Below are positions 3,151-55,105 of a stretch of DNA of 64,000 bases, piece by piece. Position numbers and translations under genes: made by a program. Location: assembly GCA_045837725.1 (NCBI GenBank), contig JBEWZL010000083.1:186001-250000 (forward strand), written 5' to 3'. Each line of letters starts with the position of its first letter. Position 1 is the stretch's first letter. Origin of the DNA: Vermamoeba vermiformis (lineage: Eukaryota). Under the pieces are notes generated by a model. The model ran no database searches and was not told the DNA's origin. It saw only the letters and a list, made by a program, of their open reading frames with translations.

Positions 3151-6100
3151 TTAAAACAACACATCCGCTACATGCACGCATTGTTTGTCGTGCTGCAGTG
3201 CCACGAGATTGACGTAACACTGCTGGTGCGCGGTGCCCCAATGCAGATACACGTGCACCAAGGCGTGCACTGGCTGCGCGACTGTCTTGCTCTTGGCGTT
3301 GAACAGCTCCACTTCAATGCGATACAGGCCCGGCACTGCACGGCGCAACAAGTACTCTTCAGGCCCGAGACCATTGGCCATGTCCTTGCTCAACGTGCCG
3401 CCGTTCTGCGTCGTGTTGTTGAAGGCGTAGCAGTGCGCCAAGCCGGGCTCGTACACGTGCAGATTCAGATCCACTTGATCCAGATCCCACTGCACCGTCA
3501 CGCGCAGATCAATCTCGAGTGGAATGTCGAGGTCTATCTTCTGGTGGTGCAGCAGCTGCATCAACTTGTCGCACTGCGAGTAGTGCTCGTCCAACAGCTC
3601 GCTCATCAGTCGCACCGCGCGGTTCACTTCCATCAGTGCCACCACTTCTACTTGCGTGAAGCGCACGTCCCACTCTTTTTCCTAAAATAGAAGGTGTCAG
3701 TTTCGTGTCATCACGTGATAGTATTTTAATTCATTCCAACGATACTCACGATGACATCTGTCAAAAGTGTCAATGCACGTGTCAAGTCTCCGCGCACTCC
3801 TCTGCGCACCAGCACACGTGCCAGATCGAGATAACTTTGCGGTTCTTCACTGCGGAGTGCCAGCACGCGGTCGTAGAGGTGTATTGCGTGCTCAATCAGC
3901 GCGTGTTGTTCGCACGCGTAGGCCAACAGTCGCATCCACTTGTGCTCGTTGAGCTGCGACTCGACCATGTTGGACAGCACGCGCAGTCCGACACGTGACA
4001 GCTCTGCGCCCTGGTTGAGTAATTTGCAGCCGAGGTGCAAATAAAAGTACGGAGTGCGGTGCGTGACGGAATTATAGTAATTCCGCAGTGCCTGTTCAGT
4101 GCTCACGTGCTCCTCGCGCAGCTCCGCAGACTCGTACAGGTGCAGCGTGACTGTCTTGCCGAGCGGCGTGCAGTGCTGGCGCGATCTATTTTTAGCGTAC
4201 ACGAATGAGGGTGTGGCACGTGACACCGGAACAATATCCTGACTGAAGTCCATCAAGTTGTCCTGTTCTTCCAAGAATGAGCTGTATTCCGAGGGCTCGG
4301 AAGAATTGTCGCTGCACGATGCAATCTCCGAGGTGGGAGATGCAGAGCGAGATCGCACCAAGCGTTGTTCCGGCGAGGCAGCACGTGAAGTGATACGACG
4401 TCGTTTGGGCAGTGCGCTGAGCTCTGCGTCACGTGCTCGTTTGCGCGAGTCAGTAGCGACCCGCTCTTCGGGTAATTCCGGGGAATAGTTCGGGGAGGTC
4501 GGGGAGTAATCGGGGGACGCGGGTGAGTAGTTCGGGGAACAGGCGGAGTACACGGGACTGTGCTGCGCGGAAGTGATGTTCATCGCCTCATTCTGATTGT
4601 ACGCGCACGAGGTCGGGGCGGAGTACTGCGAGGTCGGGGAGTAATCAGGGGAGGCGGGCGAATACTCCGGGGAGTGTGGCTCGTAACGCGGACTGCGGGG
4701 CGAATAGTGCGGGGAGGTCGGGGAGTAATCGGGGGACACGGGTGAGTAGTGCGGGGAAGTAGGTGCGTACTGCGGGGAGGTCGGGGCATAGCGCGGGGAG
4801 GTCGGGGTGTAGTTCGGGAGATTGAGGCTGTGATGCACCGAGTGCGGGAGGTAGTTCGGGGAGACCGGGGAATAATTCGGGGAGGAAGGTGAATAGCTCG
4901 GGGTGACGGGAGAATATGTCGGGGAGGTCGGGGTGTAGCGCGGGGCAGTCGGGGTGTAGCGCGTAGTTTGAGGCAGCAAACGAGGCTGCAAAACTGCAAG
5001 TGACACGTGTCGTTCAGCGTGTTGCGCCATGTAGTGCGAGAACGTGTCTGCAAAGTTGAGCGAGCTAAAAATAGGTCGGGAATATTCTTGGCGCCACATA
5101 GCCATCAGCAGCTCAGGGCTCTGATCGCGTGTCATCTGCTGATTGACAGGTGTCACTTCGAGTGTCGCACAGCGATCACTGTCGTGCGTGTCGACCAGGG
5201 CAGAGATGCGTTCAGATTCGAGTTCGCTGTAATGGCGCGGTGGCACGTGATGCAGTGTCATGCAGGGTTTGACACCTGTCATCGACCAGTCACGTGACCA
5301 CCAATCCAATCGGCGCTGCCACCAGTCCAAAGCATGGTGCCATCGATGGCGCTGCTTGTTGAACGCTTTTCTTTTTTTGGCAGCGAGCAAGAGGTGATAC
5401 TGCTGGTGGCACGTGGCATGGCTGGCGGGCGGTTCAATCTCGTAGCGGAGATACTGCGAGACATCATCGAGTACGATTAAGGAAGTCGCGCCAGGAGTGA
5501 CCAGGCCAAACAGCCGTCCTATTTTTAGCAACGCTTTCTTGCTCTGCTCTTCGTTCTGATTGGTCACCAACATCTCTTCGATCTTCTTGGAGGCTAATTA
5601 TAGAACTGGTCAGCACCATTACTATAAATGGCAAGCAACGTACCGAAGAACTTGGGAATGAGGGGTGCAGCGGTGACGTCATCGAGCTGAATGGTGAGAG
5701 TCACGTGCTTGCTGACCACCACGCGACTGCCATAGCCAAAGTTCTGCAACGGATTAGAATGAGCATAACCAAATATGGTAATATCGATGCGTACCATGGT
5801 GATGGGCACGGTGATGGAGTTCGATTTTTTCACTGAATCTGAAGTGACAGGTGTCACCGTGACTTTTCCTGTCAAAATGAAGTTCGCGCGGGTCAAAGGA
5901 GTGGCACGTGATGGATAAGTCTCCAGCGCGACACCGGGTATCTCCGCGCTGAGATTCAAAAACGAGAAGTGAGGTCTGCCCACCGTTCTGAGCACGTGAT
6001 CGATGCTGCTGTTTTGCAGATTAAAAAACACGCCACCCTGTCAAATGACACGTGTCAAACAGAGATCTCAGCCAACCATGTCACGTGACTTACCGTAGTC

Positions 6101-7410
6101 TGTGCGAGTGCGCGCAAGAGAGCAGCGTTGTGCACGACATTGGCAGTGACGGCATACACTGGCGCAGCTATTTTTAGCTCGGTGAAATTAACGCGCGCTC
6201 CAATAGATGAAATTCCGTCGGAGAACAACAAGATGTAGTCGAACACGTGATTCAGTTTGACACGTGTCATAATGCTGAGATCAGTCGCGCCATCGTACTC
6301 AATGCTTTGCAGAAATTGCAGCAGTTGGGTGACATCGCGCTCTTGCTTAATTTGGAAAATGCGTTCTTCTTCGCACTCATTTCTAAATATGTACACGACG
6401 AGCTTGACGGGCGCAGTCAACTCTTGATTTAGTAATTGCCTCATCAAACTGCGAGGGTCAGTACGATTGCTTAATTAGGAAATAAGTCACTGACCTGAAC
6501 TCAACGCTCTTGTCAGTGGCACGACTCAACGATGCATCCCAAAATAGACCAATTGTCTTGGGTTCATTGACACGTGTCATTGACTGCTCGTTGACTTGCG
6601 GCACGTGACAGCGCGCAATGAAGTAGTGACAGCTGTCAAAGTAGGTGCTGTCATCGGGGTCAGTCAGATCTGACGCGCGTTGCGGTCTGATCGCGCGAGT
6701 GACAGTTGCGCCATCACGTGGGTCAAATTGAAGTGTCAAACCACGTGACATCCTGAGATTGGTGACACGTGTCATGGCCTGGTGACCAGCCAACTTGAAA
6801 TTAGCATCGCGTGCTGCAATATCCGGGGCGGTGAGTGTCACGTGCTGCGTGAGTTCATTGTGCGTGATCACGTGACAGCTGAACGTGTCAATCGGTGCGT
6901 TGAATGAGAGGGGCACGCGACACACTCCCGTGTCAATCAGGGACACGAATCGCAGTCGAATGCGTCGGCCAGACTTGGGCACTGGGTACACGCGAATGCG
7001 GTATACATTGCCAGTCACGTGCTCGCAGATTGCAATTCTGCCCGCGACAGTAGATCTGACCGCGTTTTCAAAGGCCACTTGAGCTTGTTCGCGCTCAACG
7101 ACCACGCCCTGGACAAGCACGGAATCTATGTCAACCTCAAAGCCGGACACAGTGGCGCCTTCAGTGAGCACCAAGGTGATCTCTGCCTCCACGCCAGTGC
7201 GCGAGGTGGAATTGACAAAGTGGATGTCCACTTCTGTCTCTAAACCACGAGAGATGAGCGCGAGGGATAGGGAATTTGTAACTAATTTATGTAATTGGAT
7301 TATTTACCTGCAAGATAATTATTTAATTCGATTTTTAGGCTGAGATCGCGGATTTGAAGTTGTTGGCCATCGTCCTTCGCAACGACTTTGATACAACTCG
7401 TATCCGCCAT
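3151..7410 (-). CDS. VIT + vWA-like + TPR + DUF2135/YfaP-type protein with an inserted Pol II CTD-like heptad array
   Basis: ATG at 7410, first intron 7307-7240. VIT-like AETEVDIHFVN..GATVSGFEVDIDSVLVQGVVVEREQAQVAFE; vWA-like LFWDASLS..YDGATD..LFSDGIS; RSEEPQSYLDLA; C-terminal DLRVTVQWD..DLNLHVYEP..GLGPEEY typical of DUF2135. Confidence 0.8.
4470..4958 (-). repeat. 21-nt tandem coding repeat encoding ~20 YSPTSPx-like heptads
   Basis: Translation reads YTPTAPR YTPTSPT YSPVTPS YSPSSPN YSPVSPN ... YSPTSPH YSPRSPR ... YSPASPD YSPTSPN YSPE; the plus strand shows recurring ggggaggtcggggagta units. Confidence 0.95.
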
Positions 7411-20104: not shown

Positions 20105-22712
20105 ATGGATCAAGGAGAACCAGAAGCACGATGGTATTGGCTGGATGAAGACCGCGAATGGAAAAAATTCATGAAATTAGACAGTGATTTAATTGAGATT
20201 GCTTCACAGTCTGGAGACAAGGTCGTTAAAATTCTGGGTGGATTGTATGAAGCGGATATCGATGCTCGTGCTTACAAGAAAGTTTCTACTGGTTTTGTTC
20301 GCAAGATTATGAGGTAATTATTAATATTTGATGATAACGCTGCTTTTATTCAAAAACTAAATTCAATAAAGAAATTTAATTAGCAACGAATTATTGTTTA
20401 CAGTTGTTAACGATCATACCATCGTCCATGTATTATTAATGCTCTAAAATAGCATACGTGGTATTTTTGAAGTATTATTTTCAATATAAATAGAATTTCA
20501 ATTCCCGATCTAACCAGTTTTCTTTCAAAGATCAACTTGGTTTGCAGAGGACTCGAAAGTGAATGAAAAAGGAGAAAAGAATTCCATCCCATTCATGGAA
20601 GATATTTGTCAGCGCTTAGAAGAGGCCTATTTGACCGAGCAGTTTGGCCCGAAAATTCCCGTTGGATTAGACTTTGCAGTTGTTCTGTCTCGCGATGGCA
20701 ATCACAAACAAGTGCAGTACGTGCCTCTGATCTTATCGCATATCATTCACTAACGCCGCATTCAGTGAAACAATAGCGACAGACGTCATTCGCGTGACAC
20801 GTGGCTACAAGAACAGAACTGTGCGCGAGGCCACACGTCGCCGCGACAGCACGGAATATCAGCCGCGCGAGCAGTACTCGTACGGCACCGTGCCGTCCAT
20901 TCAAGAGCGCATTGGCAGCTCACCGACCACTGCGACGCTGCCACCACTCCGCGGCTCTCCAGGGACCAGTCGCACCAATTCAGTGTCGCTCTCCCCGACC
21001 TCCACGCGCATCACTGACTCGGCGCCGAGTGTGCGCAACAGTGTCTTCCTCGAGGGCTACTTGCACAAGCTGGGCGAGAAGTTCAATGTCTGGGACAATC
21101 GCTGGTTCGTGTTGAATGCCGACTACTTGGTCTACTTCAGCAACAAGGTGAGTCCTGTCGTATATGTTGCTCAATAGTACCTCGATGAGTGCTGACATGT
21201 CTGCCAGTCACGTGACAAAGAGAAGGGTCGTATTGCCCTCTCCGCGGTGCAGAAGTGCGAATTGGCCCCGCCCAGCAGCAAACACGGCGCGAGTGGCACT
21301 GTGTTCATGTTGCACACTCCGAAACGAACCTATCAACTGCGAGCTTGTAAGTGACACCTATCAGTCAGTACATTGCACCATTCTCACACTAATTTGTAGC
21401 TTCACGCCGCGATGCCGAGGCGTGGATCGAGGGCATCAACAAGAACATGCGCGGTGAGAGTCCCAATGCCCCTACAGCCCCCGTGGCCACAGTGGAGGTG
21501 AAACAAGTGGTCAATGATGACAAGGGTGTCGTGGTCAGTGTGCAGAACGAGTCGCGACCTCTCAGCGGAGATTTCAGCAAACAAGTAGCTGTCAATCCCT
21601 TGCAACAGACCTCACCAATGCTGGGTCCGCAGCCCATTCCTCTGTCACAACTGCCCAATTCACCGTACAACAACGCACCAGGCAACAGAATGTCCATGCC
21701 AGGCCAGAGCATGTCACAGCCGATGTTAGGCCAGGGACAGCTGATGGGCAATCAAATGGGCCCTGGCATGCCTCAACAGCCTGTCGGAGGTCCCATGATG
21801 AACCCTGGCATGCAGCCAATGGGCCAGATGGGTCAAATGGGCCAAAATCAACCAATGATGAACCCAGGCATGATGGGCAATCAAATGAGCCCTGGCATGG
21901 GTCAAAACCCCGCAATGATGAACAGTCCCGGGCAGAGTCCAGTCATGCAACGACCAATGGGCCAGAGCCCAGGCATGATGGGCAATCAAATGGGCCAGGG
22001 CATGCCTCAATCACCAATGATGGGCCAGAACTACAATCAGCCCAACATGGCCAGTCCCATGCAGAGTCCCATGATGAGTCATCAGCCCATGAACACCGGC
22101 ACCTATCAAATGGCCCCGCAAGCCAACAACCCAATGATGATGGGTCAAGGCCAGCCCATGACAGGTGGTCAGAACTATCGTCTGTCACAGCAGTACTCGC
22201 AGCCAATAGGCACTCAAAACACTATGGGCATGACTCAGCCAATGATGCCGCAGATGGGTCAGGGCACTATGAACCCTCAAATGGGCAGTCCAATGATGGG
22301 ACAAGGCACCATGAATCCACAAATGGGCACTCAAATGGGTCAGATGACTGGTCAAGGCATGTCCTCCACTCAGACACCCGGTGGCTGGCCTCCAGGTTAC
22401 GCACCTCCCCCTCCAAACAATGCTGGTCAGTACGGCAATCCCTCCATGTACAATCAGTACAGCTCACCCTCGCAATCACCCTCCTTGTCGCAGTACACGC
22501 CTTCAGCCACCAACCCCTTTGCACAACAAGTAGGTCAAGCTGGTCAACCCCAATACGGCTACAATCCTCAGAACACTGGCCAATACAACCCGCAACAGCC
22601 TCAGAGTCCCTCGCAATATGGCAACACAGCCTACGGACAACAGCCTGGTCAATATCAGCCCACTCCCGGTACTTACGGCACTTCGAATCAAATGTACAAT
22701 TATCGCCAATAA
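20105..22712 (+). CDS. Tandem WWE + PH domain protein with a long Q/M/G/P/Y-rich low-complexity tail
   Basis: WWE1: WYWLDEDREWKKF..LIE..RKIMR. WWE2: STWF..PF..LEEAY. PH: EGYLHKLG..WDNRWFVL..RTYQLRA..AWIEGI. The tail spans ~21600-22712. Confidence 0.85.
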
Positions 22713-47554: not shown

Positions 47555-49149
47555 ATGCGGTTTGAACTCGTCGTTGCAATTTTGTTTGGATTCCTTGCTG
47601 TGGGTCTAGGTAACGTTTCGATTACTAATTTTAAAAATTAGACTACTTTATCAAAAAATATTTTATAGATACAGCAATTGAATCAAATTATTATTATTGA
47701 CAGATCTGTCACCAGAAATTTTGAGTTTGATCCGCATTCTTGTGCGATTAGCGTAATATTAATTCTGCTAAAGCATCCAATCACGTTTAATAAATTGACG
47801 TAAACAATTTGACTATAGTCAAATTGACAAGCTCTGAACGTACTTCCAGAAAGATCCGCCTGCTGTCAACAGAATAGAATCTTCTAGGTTCTAATGTGTA
47901 CTCTTTTGTTTAGGTCAAATAACCCCTCTAATTCTCAATGCACCTCATGAGGCATCTATTCGCCAAGGAGAGTACTTGGACTTCGCTTACAGCTTTTCTC
48001 TCGGCGGAGAGAATGAGGATGTGGTAATTCGCGTTGAAGGAGATAGTAAGTATTTCGATTATAAGCACGCTCTCACTAACCACATTGCATCTAGCTGGCG
48101 ATATTTCATTGTTTGCATCAACTACGCCTGAGCCCAGACGGTAAATAGCTCAGCCCTCTGTAGTGCGGATCTAACCTTGAAATTACAGCGACTCTTACGA
48201 ATATAACTGGCGCTCATTGGACGGCGTTCATGATACACTCTATATCCCACGAAGACTTGCTACTAACCGCAAGGTGTACGTTTCTGTTTTCGGAGGAGCA
48301 GATTCAGTTTTCACGATTCGAGTTTATTCTCAACAAGGTACGTGTGAACGAATCATAATATTGTCACATATCTAATATTGTATTTCAGTCTTCTTGCCAT
48401 TCGAGAACTTGCTTACTCCCACCAACATCTACGACAGCGAAAGTCAATTCTACGCTTTTTGGGCAGCTGTTCCATCGAGTGATACTGTTGGACAATACAG
48501 ATTGAACGTCACTTTCTTGCGGTATGATACATCGTTATTAATTAGTACAAACGAATTCATGGTGTGCGATCCAGCTGATTAACTTACGATTCATTGAAGT
48601 GGCTCAGCAAATGTATTCATCGGATATCGCAATGCCGTGCCAGTGCCTGAATCCAACGACTTCAGATACGCCATTGAAGATATGCCTGCAGATCAAAATT
48701 CGTTGCTCATGACTGTTGAGGATGTGATGCCTGGTACGATTTCAACTCAGCTTTAATAGGAAATTTAGCTGTTATTAATATTCTTTGTATCATAGGCTGG
48801 TATTTTATTCGCGTTATTGGCACTGCAGAGGAGACTCAATTTACTATGCAGATGTTCCCTCCTGGCGCAGAAATACCAAGTAGGTAGAAGTGCTGCTAGT
48901 ATTATAATTACTTAAAAATGGTATAGGACCTGATGTACCCGAATTAACGCCACTTACTCTTGGCCTTATTGTTGGTGCATCCGTTTTTGTTGGAGCCATT
49001 GCAATTTCAGCCACTATTTACTTCTCATGCCGCGCTTATCAAAAGAGAGTAAGTCTAGCTCGTAATTAAAACGTGTTAATATTAATATTACTATTGTTTA
49101 GCAATTGAACAGAGAAGTCGCGTACCACAGAGTGCGAGAGAACTTGTAA
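47555..49149 (+). CDS. Hypothetical type I membrane protein with beta-rich ectodomain; many short exons, mostly missing from the ORF track
   Basis: Signal peptide MRFELVVAILFGFLAVGL; exons such as GDISLFASTTPEP, VYVSVFG and GWYFIRVIG; TM LTLGLIVGASVFVGAIAISATIYF followed by a basic tail. Confidence 0.65.
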
Positions 49150-49321
49150 TTTTGTTGTAATTATGCTGTCATTTATTTAGTTCCACGTGTTTAATAAATA
49201 TGCCACTGCAATGAATTCGAGAGTACTAAAATGAAGTTCACAATTGTTGCTGTTCGCTGGCCAGCATAAAAATCAGAATTATTTGAAAACGCCATTATTT
49301 TTACAAGCAAACAACACTTGC

Positions 49322-50470
49322 ATGCTTCGCAAAGCAGGTAATTACCTACTTTAAACACCCAAATAGTAATAGTTTTATGAAACGTCTCTGTAAGTAGAGC
49401 AATGAACCAACGAATTTCATGTATGTAGGACTGCTCCTTATCAATAATTGCCCGTTATGAGCTCTGCGCGAATAACTGGTATTAACATGTTTAATTTATT
49501 AATAATATGAATTCTGATTTTAAAATTTGAATAATGAAAACGGTATGGCAGAAAAAGTTAGGATTATTCAATATCTCAACCTAGCTCTAGAATTCTACCA
49601 TCTCGTAATAACATAAAAAATATCAATTACCACGACATATATGCTTAAAAGTTAGTGTCAGATACTTTTTCAAGACCTTTACGTGCAATTTCGTTTATGA
49701 AGCAGATCTGATAACATCTAATTAATTTAATTAATAATTACCAATTTTTAAATTGCTATGACCGATTTATTTCATTATTAACTGATGTTCGTTTTCCAGT
49801 TGGTGGATTGAGCGCGAACAAGCAGCTCTCTACGGAGAGCTCGCTGCCGCCGATGGCACAACCATCTATGCCGTCGATGGCCCCGCGCAAGCCTTTAATG
49901 ACAGACATGCCAATGCCCATGAGTCAGATGGCGATGCCCAGCATTGCTCCTCGAAAGGCCTTGAATACTGAGCCTGTGATTCTGCCGGTATGTTGTATAT
50001 TAAGATAGATCGGTGTGATGTAGCAAACAGCGCTATTCTAATGATGCACGTAACTTGAGTTTGACGGATTTGATCCTTTCAGTCTTCTCCGCAATACTCT
50101 CCGACCTCTCCAAGTTACAGTCCTTCACCTAGGAAACCGCTTCATACTGAATTAGTGCCTGTGAGCATTACTCGCACCAACTTTGTGAGTTTTCCAATTA
50201 CTGATCTGATCTATTTTTAGACTTCTAATGTTGCCTCATTTGGTATGGCGCCAAGAAAGCAATTGAGCACAGAACCAGTAAGTACTTCTCTTCGTCCGAA
50301 TATTCAAGAAGATTACTTATCGGAGTACAGGTGGAGGCAAAGCCAGATCGCTCTCGGGTGATGAACAAGGTGCAGCGTTCAATCAAGGCGCGCAGTCAGC
50401 TGAAGACAGGCGACGATGAAGTCCAGACTTTGGGTGAAGGTCTTAGTGCACGCAGTCAATTGACCACAGA
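49322..50470 (+). repeat. Degenerate coding repeat resembling histone H3 residues 14-23 (x-APRKQL-x-T-E)
   Basis: RKAVGGLSANKQLSTE (exons 1-2), MAPRKPLMTD (49877), IAPRKALNTE (49943), SPRKPLHTE (~50125), GMAPRKQLSTE (50242), and weaker IKARSQLKTG and GLSARSQLTTE. Confidence 0.8.
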
Positions 50471-53400
50471 AGATGACTACTCGTCCAGTTCCTTCGACTT
50501 GTCGTCCATGGCCATGAGTAACATGATTCAGCCGAGCATTAATTTTAGACGCCAAATGCAGACGCAACAAGAGCCCTCAGTGACGACATTCACGAACACT
50601 GACAGCGACGACTACTGGTCACAAGTCAATGTGCAACAGCAGCAACAGACGCAGCAGTTGTTGCAATTGGAGAACTTGTTGGTGCAACAGTCCAAGATCA
50701 ACAACTTGCACGCGCAACCGACTGTTATCGATGTCTTTGCAGCTATTCAGAAGGAAATGAGCGACGATCGATCGGTGCCACGTGACAGCCGAGTGGTGTT
50801 GTACAACGACGTGCCTTATGTCCCCGCTCAAGCCATTGCATCTACTTCACAACTAGACAACGAGTTAAACAAGTTGAATGAGTTGTTCGAGGCTGGATTT
50901 ATCATCAAAGAACAATACCATAAGAGGAAAAGAGATCTCATCGAAATGAAGGATCGATCGTTCGATGTCACCGTGCCACACTCAGATTACAGTTTCATTG
51001 CTCTGTCCTCAGGCAAGAGACAGCGCACTGAAGGCTCAACACGCAGCACTAATCGTAACATTCGTGTCTTCATTTCATCGACTTTCCGTGACATGTCTGA
51101 TGAGCGTGAGGCCATCATGAAGAAAGCAATTCCTGAGCTCCAAAAACTTGCTAAACAACGTGGTGTATTCTTGACAGCTGTAAGTACAAAAAATGTTGTT
51201 CATATCAACTTCTTACTAATATTTCCTAGGTCGATCTTCGCTGGGGTATCACGAGCGATCAAACCAACGAAGGCAATACATTGAACATTTGCTTGGCTGA
51301 AGTGGACAGATGTCGTCCGTACTTTGTCGGTCTCTTAGGTCAACGTTATGGTTGGAGTCAACCTTCATCGCGATCTAAGGAGACTGGACTGTTGAACGAA
51401 GCAGATCATCTCTTGAAGAAGACTTTTGACCGCGCACAACTCAACTACCCTTGGCTCGGTGACTACCGTGACCGGTCAGTGACTGAGTTGGAGGTAAGTC
51501 CTGGCTAGATTTCATTGCGTAAAGAGGGTATTAATCAGAATTTAGGTTCGACACGCTGTGTTGAATGATCTTCAAAGTGACAGCGCATCTCGTGCATTGT
51601 TTTACCTCCGCAGAAGCACACCAGGGTAAGTAGTGAAAAATAGGTGTTTCTATTTGCATAGTATTAACAACAATTAGATCCCGCGACGATGACCCCCGTT
51701 TGACTACATTGAAGGACGAGCTGTCGTCTTCATCTCTCAAATGTGCTCAATACAACTCTGTTGACGAGTTGGCACGCAAGCTCGTTGAAGACTTCAAAGT
51801 GCTGCTCGATCGTGATTTCCCCGCCAGCTCTGCCCCAGGTCCTCTCGACATTGAACGTGCCGGTCACATGGCCTTCCAAGAGTCGCGCTCTCGCGTGTAC
51901 ATTGGTCGCAAGCACTACTTTGACAAGATCAACGAACACTTCTCAAAGCCCAATCCCGGTCCTATTGTTGTCGTAGCTGACTCAGGTCTCGGTAAGAGTG
52001 CCTTGATGGCCAACTGGATGGTGCAGTACGCTGGTGGCGACGATGGTCGTCATTTGGTCATTTCAAACTACATTGGTTGCACAGCTGCTAGCACAGATCT
52101 CGGGCGATTGTTGCGCCGCATTTGTGCCGAAATTCAAGACTTCTGGAAGATCGACAAGCCAATCCCTACGGAGCTACCAAAACTCATCGAGAAATTCCCA
52201 GAATGGTTGAATGAAGCTGATGCACGCGGAGGCTGCACAATTTTGTTCGATGCAATTAACCAACTTGAAGCCAAGGACGACGCACACCTCTTGCGTTGGT
52301 TGCCGCGCAAGTTCCCTCCCTCTGTTCGAGTTCTCGTCTCTACTACACCCAGCACTTGTTTGCAATGGTTGAAGGATCGCGAATGGAACACAATGACTGT
52401 CGAGCCATTGACCACTGAAGAACGCAAGAATTTGATCGAAGAATACCTAGGTCAATACGGCAAAAAGATGACTCAAGCGCAAATTCAAAGGTAAACAGGT
52501 CGTACTACACTAGCGAGTGCTTTTCTAACACGTGAAACAGAGTTATGGCGTCCAATGCCTGTCAAAACCCTTTGTACTTGCGCACACTGTTAGAAGAGAT
52601 CAGAGTGTTCGGCAGCTTCGAACAGCTCGATGCGCACATTGACAGATATCTCCGTGCACAATCACCGCCTGAGCTCTTCCAACTTATCTTCCAACGTCTC
52701 GAACAAGATATTACCACTGTCGTCAACAGCTCTGTCTTCTCGGGTGCCAAATTGACCCTCGTATCCGCCGTGCTGGCTCTGTCTTGGGTCGCTCGTCGTG
52801 GTCTGACTGAAGTCGAGTTACTTGAACTGTTGGGCATCACAGCCTCGCAATGGGCTCCTCTTCACTTGGCCCTCGAAGAAGCTCTCGTGTCCCGTTCAGG
52901 TTTCTTCACGTTCTTCCACGACTACATGCGTCAAGCAGTCGAGTCGCGATACATTCGCAATGCTCAACCTACGTACCGCAAGGCCATCATTGAGTACTTC
53001 ACCAAGAGTCAATCCCAACGATGACAAGCGCGTGTACGAAGAGGTTCCTTATCAACTTGAACAATTGCAAGACTGGCGTGGCTTGGCAACGTTCATCACC
53101 GACTTGAAGAACTTTGACAAGTTGTCGCGCGGTGACAGCAAGTTCGATTTGTACCGCTACTGGCGCGCTGTCTCGAAGATGGGCGGTCAAGACCCCGAGA
53201 GCATGATCTTCAACAAGATTCAAACTCTCGCCAAGGAGACACCCGAGGAGAGTCGCAACACTGTGATGGACTGCCAAGCACAAGTCGGCAAGTTCTTGGA
53301 AGACATTGGCACGTACGAAATGGCCGAGACTTTGTACAGAGATTCCCTCTCACTCGCAGAGGAGCTCTACAAGCCCAACAGCAAAGAGGTGTTGGCGCGT

Positions 53401-54953
53401 GTCGACGACTTGGCTTACTTGTTGGTACGTATAATGATACTCGCGAGTATGACGCGTTTACTAATTCCTTCAATAGCGTCTCCGCGGTAAATACAACGAC
53501 GCTTTGCCTTTGTACAGCCGAGCCTTGCAAATCAAACAGGCACTCAGCCGCGAAGAGGACGCACAGTTGGCTCAAATCATGAACAGCACCGCCGTCTTGT
53601 ACAGATTGCGCGGTGAATACGACAAAGCCGAACCGTTGTACATGAAGGCCTTGGCCATTCGTCAGCGAATCTTTGGTGAGATCCATGAAGACGTGGCACA
53701 GTCGTACAACAGTTTGGGCTGTTTGTTGCAAGACATGGGTCGTTACAAGGAGGCTGAAGAGAACTTCTTGAAGTCCATCACGCAACGAGAGTTCTTGCTC
53801 GGTGTCAATCACCCTGATGTCGCCATGTCACTCAAGTACGTATCGACAGCATCAGCTGAGCGTTATATATCTTTTGCTAACCATTCCGTTACTAGTAACT
53901 TGGCTGGATTGTACTTGGACTGGAGCAAATACGACAAAGCCGGTCCGATCTACAAGCGCGCCTTGTCCATCTATCAAATGGTCTACGGTGAAAATCACCC
54001 GAACTACGCGCAGACCTTGAACAGTACGTGTTCCTATTGTCTGAGTAATGACCTGACATTTCCTTTTTAGGTATGGCCGGTTTGATGCAAGAACAAGGCA
54101 AGTTCTCCGAGGCCGAAGTGTTGTACAAGAAGACAGTGGCCATCAAAGAAAATCTCTTGGGCAGCATGCACCCTGAGCTTGCTCTCACGCTCAACGACTT
54201 CGCCGTGCTTTACGCGCGTCAAGATAAGTTCCCTGAAGCTGAAAATCTTTACCGCCGAGCCTTGCAAATCCGCAAGACAGTGTTGGGAGAAAATCATCCC
54301 GATTTCGCGCAGTCGCTCAGTAAGTCTACAACTACCTCCTCAATGCTCAATCTAACGCGTCAATAGAAAACTTGGGCTCGTTGTTCCAAGACCAAGGCCG
54401 CTACCCCGAAGCCAAGGCCAACTACGAGCAATGTCTGCGCATTCTCGAAGCTTCATTCGGTCGCAAGCACATGGACGTGGCGAGTGCCTTGCATCACTTG
54501 GCAGCCATCAATCAGCTGCAAGGCCTGTACAACGAGGCTATTCCGCTCTACAACCGCGCCCTCGACATTTACTACGAGTTGTTGGGCCCCGTGCACGCAG
54601 ACATTGCGTTGTCATTGAACGACTTGGCCATTTTGTACTTCAAACAGGGCAACAACAAGAAGGCCGAAGAGTACTACTTGAAGTCGATTGACAACTACAC
54701 GCAAGTGTTCACTCGTGTGCACCCTGATGTCGCTCAAGCACTGCTCAATATTGCTCAGTTCTACAAAGCAACTGGTATGATGAAATAGGTTGACACGCGT
54801 TTATTCAGCATAACTAACATATCTTTTATTTTAGGTCAAACCGCCAATGCCAAGAAGTTCTACCAGGAATCGATTGACATTTTCACGCAAACACTTGGTG
54901 CCTCGAACCCTCGCACGCAGAACGCTGTTGCAAGCTCCAAGAGTTTGAAGTAG
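49322..54953 (+). CDS. NPHP3/TEP1-like STAND protein: H3/CTD-mimic N-terminus + SHOCT + DUF4062 + NACHT-like NTPase + TPR array; one apparent frameshift near 53007
   Basis: SHOCT-like LNKLNELFEAGFIIKEQYHKRK; DUF4062 IRVFISSTFRDMSDER..DLRWG..CLAEVDRCRPYFVGLLGQRYGW; Walker A ADSGLGKS; Walker B ILFDAINQL; NPLYL; kinesin-light-chain-type TPRs (HPDVA, HPELA, HPDFA). Confidence 0.88.
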
Positions 54954-55105
54954 TGCGACAAATGAATCTCAGATCCGTTGTGGATTTTGATGTAGATGTT
55001 GTAGATTTAATGTGATAAATATCTGTTTATCAGCAAAATTTATTCGTTTGTTTTCTTTAGCTATTTACATTTTATTTACAAATTATTATTAATTTTATGT
55101 TATTA

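Follow-up and report, generated by a model that had tools for sequence, protein, structure and literature searches.

The window (the whole stretch of 64,000 nucleotides that was analysed) is eukaryotic DNA with short GT-AG introns and carries, at about 49331-54953 (+), a gene that is spliced and expressed in all four of the sequencing runs whose contigs were compared with it. The gene product is an NLR-like STAND protein, in which a DUF4062 domain (NIR, TIR-like NADase) is followed by a NACHT domain and TPRs, and whose N-terminal extension bears an array of short motif copies with a likeness to the tail of histone H3. The gene model was checked with contigs of four runs from four studies aligned to window 48900-55100, run X5 being RNA on record and the other three RNA by guess; identity to the window is mostly 95-99% for these contigs which, as assembled sequences, may lack rare isoforms. 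The features of the locus are the following:

49322-49337 (+): first exon of the original prediction, unsupported by the RNA contigs
49331-49420 (+): 5' exon, holding the short frame at ATG 49377 and ATG 49402 (MNQRIS plus the first base of F); joint 49420>49800 in X5
49800-49987 (+): coding exon with motif copies 1-3; joints 49420>49800 and 49987>50221
50083-50184 (+): skipped open frame with GT-AG flanks, containing Rpb1-CTD-like heptads and then SPRKPLHTE; bypassed by the joint 49987>50221 in all four runs
50221-50277 (+): coding exon, its copy FGMAPRKQLSTE being the most H3-like of the internal ones; RNA joints and translation
50331-51179 (+): coding exon with looser copies, a Q-rich stretch, a segment conserved in the homologues P0001-P0003 and the start of DUF4062
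51230-51625 (+): rest of DUF4062 (NIR) and linker, in two exons (51230-51493 and 51546-51625); Pfam and joints
51678-52490 (+): exon of the NACHT P-loop NTPase (GLGKS); Pfam and joints
52541-53424 (+): helical domain and first TPRs, with an extra base at 53006-53008; contigs and P0001
53477-54953 (+): five TPR exons (53477-53835, 53896-54023, 54071-54319, 54367-54774 and 54835-54953); TPR_12, TPR_10 and joints

Four exons had originally been proposed for the 5' part of the gene, of which 49800-49987 and 50221-50277 agree with the RNA contigs whereas 49322-49337 and 50083-50184 do not. The joint 49987>50221 is present in each of the four runs and 50277>50331 in three of them, and all the predicted joints from 50277 on are found in the contigs, down to the stop at 54951-54953; the motif exons are thus joined to the NTPase, as had been foreseen. 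The open frame at 50083-50184, which had been proposed as an exon and encodes the copy SPRKPLHTE, is skipped in four of the four runs, with zero cover by bin depths, and could represent either an exon in decay or a rarely included cassette.

Regarding the 5' end, the sole upstream joint into 49800 among those listed is 49420>49800 (GT..AG, run X5, side 88), based on one contig of X5 together with cover in X1, whose contig also covers 49399; a joint 49337>49800 is absent among the RNA-contig joints listed. Cover of the 5' exon amounts to about 85-90 nt in the bin 49314-49520 (X1 and X5), its limit near 49331 being set from contig ends only. With the exon extended to 49420, the ATG at 49322, provided that it is transcribed, opens a frame of 10 codons (MLRKAGNYLL-stop), and the residues LRKAV, which had been read as the beginning of the protein, do not belong to it. 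The ATG at 49402 is in frame across 49420>49800, gives the product the N-terminus MNQRISFGGLSANKQLSTE and is the likely translation start, supported by the opening MMNARMSTSGL of P0003, which shares M-N-x-R-hydrophobic-S-x-x-G-L with the window. If initiation occurred at the next in-frame Met, located in exon 2 (49800-49987), the most N-terminal motif copy would be missing from the protein. Ahead of 49402 lies an upstream frame at 49377-49397 (+), with an ATG at 49377 in weak context and six codons (MKRLCK-stop), and in its neighbourhood run X5 has small indels (49375, 49379 and 49399).

Further downstream, the window has one extra base at 53006-53008 compared with all contigs of the four runs. 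It interrupts the reading frame at the passage from the helical domain to the TPRs, where P0001 reads through as a single frame of 1397 aa extending from the Met of MAPRKQLSTEP to the end of the TPRs. This frameshift may be an assembly error or a strain-specific broken or null allele. Transcripts 95-99% identical to the gene region 49200-52500 occur in runs labelled with at least eight organisms, as well as in biofilm and root metagenomes; this spread, for which four runs were aligned and small-share runs are uninformative on habitat, points to either a free-living microbe of wide distribution or a companion of cultures.

The domain assignment comes from Pfam matches along the exons. DUF4062 (PF13271) scores 25.3 and 35.6 bits on two exon pieces (the end of 50331-51179, and 51230-51493) for a cut-off of 24.7, and NACHT (PF05729) scores 37.9 bits on 51678-52490 for a cut-off of 26.7, with the Walker A sequence GLGKS present. 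After the NACHT domain, TPR_12 (127 and 152 bits) and TPR_10 (81-88 bits) reach the end of the gene, and the helical and TPR models of NPHP3 also match. Within the DUF4062 match, a glutamate (E321 of P0001, in CLAEVDRC) is invariant in P0001-P0003 and is a candidate for the catalytic residue of the NADase. No Pfam family matches the extension ahead of DUF4062, which is about 370 residues long. According to three 2026 preprints, DUF4062 is a TIR-like NADase ("NIR") of bacterial anti-phage systems, of human TEP1 and, at the N-terminus, of many eukaryotic NLR-like proteins, and its role as an immune NADase has been recognised only recently; the NIR preprint describes most eukaryotic NIR proteins as NLR-like with NIR at the N-terminus. 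The eukaryotic NIR-NLR-like proteins (TEP1, NWD1, NWD2 and TTC41, with NPHP3 as a borderline case) likewise combine DUF4062, a NACHT-type NTPase and repeats. In contrast to these, NIR is not N-terminal in the present protein, in which the H3-like array, the Q-rich stretch and the conserved segment come first.

Among the homologues, P0001 is 81% identical to the window over exon 5 (50331-51179), and P0007, a genomic read-through call, is identical to exon 49800-49987 at 57 of 62 residues, one of the changes being Met>Ile at the hydrophobic position of the motif. P0003 shares 50% identity with P0001 over 1199 aligned residues (NIR-NACHT-TPR), the remainder of its extension being largely unconserved, and the array is absent from the called frame of the equally distant P0002 (51% identity). 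An exhaustive HMMER search of exon 2 (49800-49987) against 1.84 billion representatives returned only P0007 (92% identity), and word-index searches with residues 1-340 and 1-135 of P0003 returned only P0003 itself, the former being crowded by Q-rich candidates. When residues 1-240 of exon 5 (50331-51179) were compared with the ESM Atlas, no usable match came out. Besides, a first metagenome scan gave none and a second gave 21 loci, including three close relatives at 84-90% identity, with the N-terminus covered by none of the 21. The carriers of the array found among billions of proteins are the close relatives P0001 and P0007, plus P0003 only.

Within the expressed exons, translation of the forward strand gives seven motif copies:

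49808-49837 (+): LSANKQLSTE
49877-49906 (+): MAPRKPLMTD
49943-49972 (+): IAPRKALNTE
50245-50274 (+): MAPRKQLSTE
50382-50411 (+): IKARSQLKTG, a looser copy
50442-50471 (+): LSARSQLTTE, a looser copy
50538-50567 (+): INFRRQMQTQ, a looser copy

Of these, MAPRKPLMTD, IAPRKALNTE and MAPRKQLSTE lie where the original prediction had placed them. The pattern hydrophobic-[ASNK]-[PSAVF]-[RN]-[KRS]-x-[LIM] is fitted by eight copies in the window, seven of them in expressed exons, and the six-frame scan of the 64-kb window found no motif copy outside the gene. The narrower pattern [RN][KS].L.T[EDG] has seven matches when the whole window is translated in six frames, each of them at 49817-50471, for 1.3 expected from composition, a count that is merely descriptive since the pattern was derived from the copies themselves. 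What the internal copies have in common is only hydrophobic-x-x-R-K-x-hydrophobic. In H3 numbering, the 14 copies of the window and P0003 taken together have R17 in 13 cases, K18 in 10, and L, I or M at the L20 position in all 14; the K14 position, originally described as hydrophobic, indeed holds L, I or M in 13 of them and K in none, and the K23 position is acidic in the window copies.

Among the three APRK copies, the codons for A, P and R differ at third positions, and the DNA-level repeats between copies are only 72-73% identical; judged by this divergence, the copies are old. When the window is compared with P0001, SIKARSQLKTGDD is identical at 13 of 13 residues and SARSQL.TEDD at 10 of 11, and the linker between them contains an indel with 3 of 12 columns identical; such conserved islands beside a diverged linker indicate that the motif copies are under constraint. 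The window and P0003 are unlike in the number of copies and in their spacing. In addition, a 33-nt direct repeat at 49913-49945 and 50508-50540 (+), 73% identical and encoding MPMSQMAMPSI and MAMSNMIQPSI, means that the repeat unit reaches upstream of the motif, and an IQPSI..RR.MQ unit directly before the poly-Q of P0003 matches this upstream-extended unit.

The likeness to histone H3 is most extended at the N-terminus. Residues 3-19 of MNQRISFGGLSANKQLSTE align gap-free with H3 7-23 and are identical at 8 of 17 positions (R8, S10, G12, G13, K18, Q19, L20 and T22), with K9 replaced by I and K14 by L, and with R8 and S10 contributed by the true first exon. The original prediction had also put this likeness at 8/17; it stands, but by way of ATG 49402 and not of the exon 49322-49337 on which the original alignment was built. 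The N-terminus of P0003 is identical to H3 7-23 at 9 of 17 positions (A7, R8, S10, T11, G13, A15, P16, R17 and K18), with K9 replaced by M and K14 by L, so that the window and P0003 lineages retain partly different H3-identical positions. Upstream of the shared core, five of seven P0003 residues are those of H3 7-13 (P about 9e-6 per 7-mer), a match that was spotted ahead of its test and carries some forking-path inflation. Over 388,889 control 17-mers, taken from the rest of the window, the 21 metagenome loci and four homologues, the ceiling was 7/17. The analytic probability per 17-mer is about 2e-6 for at least 8/17 and about 1.3e-7 for at least 9/17, the two N-termini being homologous and thus not fully independent samples.

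Away from the N-terminus, the picture is more uneven. Identity to H3 12-23 is 8/12 for FGMAPRKQLSTE, 3-6/12 for the other window copies and 2-3/12 for the five internal copies of P0003; in the two lineages available, the H3-identical positions are thus retained in the N-terminal copy of P0003 and not in its internal ones. An isolated match at 8/12 would arise by chance about 0.006 times per window, or about 0.5 times in every 10^7 residues, so that one copy alone would be unconvincing, and it is because the P0003 homologue gives a match of its own that the case is raised above this level. When the 50221-50289 piece was compared by phmmer with 177,635 PDB sequences, 14 of 14 matches were H3 N-terminal peptides, with E-values of 0.54-1.1, and residues 1-30 of P0003 gave five of five (E-values of 0.38-1.0), none of these E-values (0.38-1.1) being individually significant; one of the peptides matched has a Met at position 14. 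At E<=10, the same PDB search with five other window pieces (whole exon 2, copies 1, 2 and 3, and copies 6-7) returned no match. Altogether, the likeness to H3 very probably exceeds chance, and what appears to be conserved is the H3 tail minus the amines of K9 and K14.

As best explanation, to which we would give an even chance, the array may be a lysine-less, non-modifiable pseudo-substrate resembling the H3 tail and mounted on an NLR-like NADase. The start of the extension resembles H3 from about residue 7 to 22, with hydrophobic residues at the K9 and K14 positions and with R8, S10, G13 and K18 retained, and looser versions of the K14-L20 segment (hydrophobic-x-x-R-K-x-hydrophobic) come after it. 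The partner of the array would be a protein whose usual ligand is the H3 tail; the hydrophobic side chain would occupy the pocket of the lysine as in K-to-M histone mimics, and this engagement would be tied to the state of the NLR-like NADase, as bait or as regulator. Such a reading starts from what is observed, namely the sequence likeness and its conservation, the expression and the domain architecture, whereas binding, a partner of host or pathogen origin and a link to the activation of the NADase are inference. As the carrier is an NLR-like protein with a NADase-type domain, a bait role is conceivable. In its most specific form, for which the prospects are slim, the lysine-less H3 tail would trap SET-domain methyltransferases of intracellular bacteria or giant viruses, with capture leading to NAD+ depletion; if true, this would amount to effector-triggered immunity based on a natural "oncohistone-like" bait in a free-living microbial eukaryote.

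The main rival, less probable but a serious contender, is that the array is a multivalent docking motif unrelated to H3, which would serve another partner or the regulation of the NADase or NACHT domain, the H3 likeness being a coincidence or an irrelevant relic. Across the 14 copies, only the two hydrophobic residues and R-K are conserved, often after P-S, and the upstream part of the repeat unit (MPMSQMAMPSI / MAMSNMIQPSI, 73% identical as DNA) is un-H3-like. The weak internal copies of P0003, at 2-3/12, also mean that the family-wide core could serve an unrelated partner, and PDB E-values near 1, with five pieces lacking a match, fit the same explanation. This rival has more difficulty with the N-terminal identities of 8/17 and 9/17, which pass the control ceiling, with the 5/7 match upstream of the core in P0003, and with the fact that both positive PDB searches gave H3 peptides only.

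A more specific version follows the original prediction of a bait for H3K14-directed enzymes: the array would trap, or serve as a tripwire for, an H3K14 methyltransferase that intracellular bacteria inject into amoebae. In the LegAS4/RomA preprint, the SET domain is described as reading G12-R17 and preferring G-K-X-P/A, a context that the Legionella enzymes reportedly require; they also reportedly need small residues at the G12/G13 positions, hold P16 in a pocket and contact R17, and norleucine took the place of K14 in the crystals. A G-hydrophobic-X-P/A sequence that fits this context occurs in two of the seven expressed window copies (GGLSA and FGMAP) and one of six P0003 copies (SGLAP), another P0003 copy (HGLSV) having V at the P/A place, and near-identical transcripts in runs labelled with many organisms, and in biofilm and root metagenomes, are as expected for a free-living microbe. 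Against this stand the S or P found at the G13 position in most copies and the hydrophobic K9 position, which is superfluous for such a reading. Moreover, that preprint makes nucleosome engagement dependent on the reading of H3R2/K4 by the ankyrin domain, and no copy mimics H3R2/K4. An H3K14 methyltransferase is a possible but narrow target, and we regard this version as improbable.

Equally hard to sustain is a neutral relic, i.e. a captured H3 gene fragment or low-complexity repeat drifting at the 5' end, as might be suggested by an extension without family matches, an array in two lineages only and a copy number and spacing that vary between the window and P0003, but which is disfavoured by the codon and orthologue evidence, since synonymous sites differ between copies whose residues are retained, motif islands are conserved beside a diverged linker, and the motif survives at 50% identity of the folded domains where the rest of the extension is largely unconserved. 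Several common short motifs (D-box RxxL, cyclin RxL, 14-3-3, calcineurin PxIxIT, SH3 PxxxPR, WDR5 A-R-S/T, basophilic kinase and CK2 sites) were also set aside, their spacing or anchor residues presumably misfitting some of the copies.

Descriptions of histone mimicry have so far presented it mostly as a trick of pathogens, or as an oddity of the mammalian germline and tumours (EZHIP). Pathogen histone mimics, such as the tail of influenza NS1, are short H3-tail-like linear motifs that engage chromatin factors. They are made by the pathogen and keep the modifiable lysine, whereas the array considered here is encoded by the host and is devoid of K9 and K14. EZHIP is described as a natural H3 K27M-like inhibitor of PRC2, acting as a competitive inhibitor of the SET methyltransferase. 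The present protein would be akin to it in having a short histone-tail-like peptide within a non-histone protein and a hydrophobic residue at the position of the target lysine, any inhibition by the present protein being putative. It differs from EZHIP by the H3 context (7-22, with K9 and K14, instead of K27), by its several copies and by its carrier, an NLR-like NADase of a microbial eukaryote. A further parallel may be seen in NLRs with integrated decoys or tripwires (plant NLR-IDs, NLRP1B; PMC4246468 and PMC13037943), which similarly combine an NLR-type chassis with a segment that imitates the host target of pathogen enzymes. The decoys of those receptors, which are experimentally supported, are either folded domains or targets of degradation, in contrast to the candidate short linear mimic proposed here.

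A host-encoded H3-tail mimic on an NLR was found in none of the matches listed by a non-exhaustive literature search. The ingredients are all known, namely histone mimicry, K-to-M inhibition, integrated decoys and NIR-NLR-like proteins, and it is their combination that is unseen among the literature matches listed. If the pseudo-substrate reading is true, an H3-tail look-alike of the host fused to NIR-NACHT-TPR would join histone mimicry, integrated decoys and NIR immunity, and would offer a handle on what the eukaryotic NIR-NLR-like proteins sense as well as on whether protists stand guard over the machinery that modifies their chromatin or set a bait for the enzymes of invaders. Even on a cautious reading, selection has maintained an array of short linear motifs at the start of an NLR-like protein.

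Elsewhere in the window, a VIT-domain protein (PF08487, 57.5 bits) lies at 3729-7303 (-), where the open frame downstream of the VIT domain contains a long run of Rpb1 CTD-type heptads (PF05001, 59.9 bits); this makes it the second protein of the window, other than a polymerase, to carry a "nuclear tail look-alike". At 21393-22712 (+), a frame of 439 codons exceptionally rich in Met, Gln, Gly and Pro, with repeats of the MGQ/PMM type, is located downstream of a PH-like segment.
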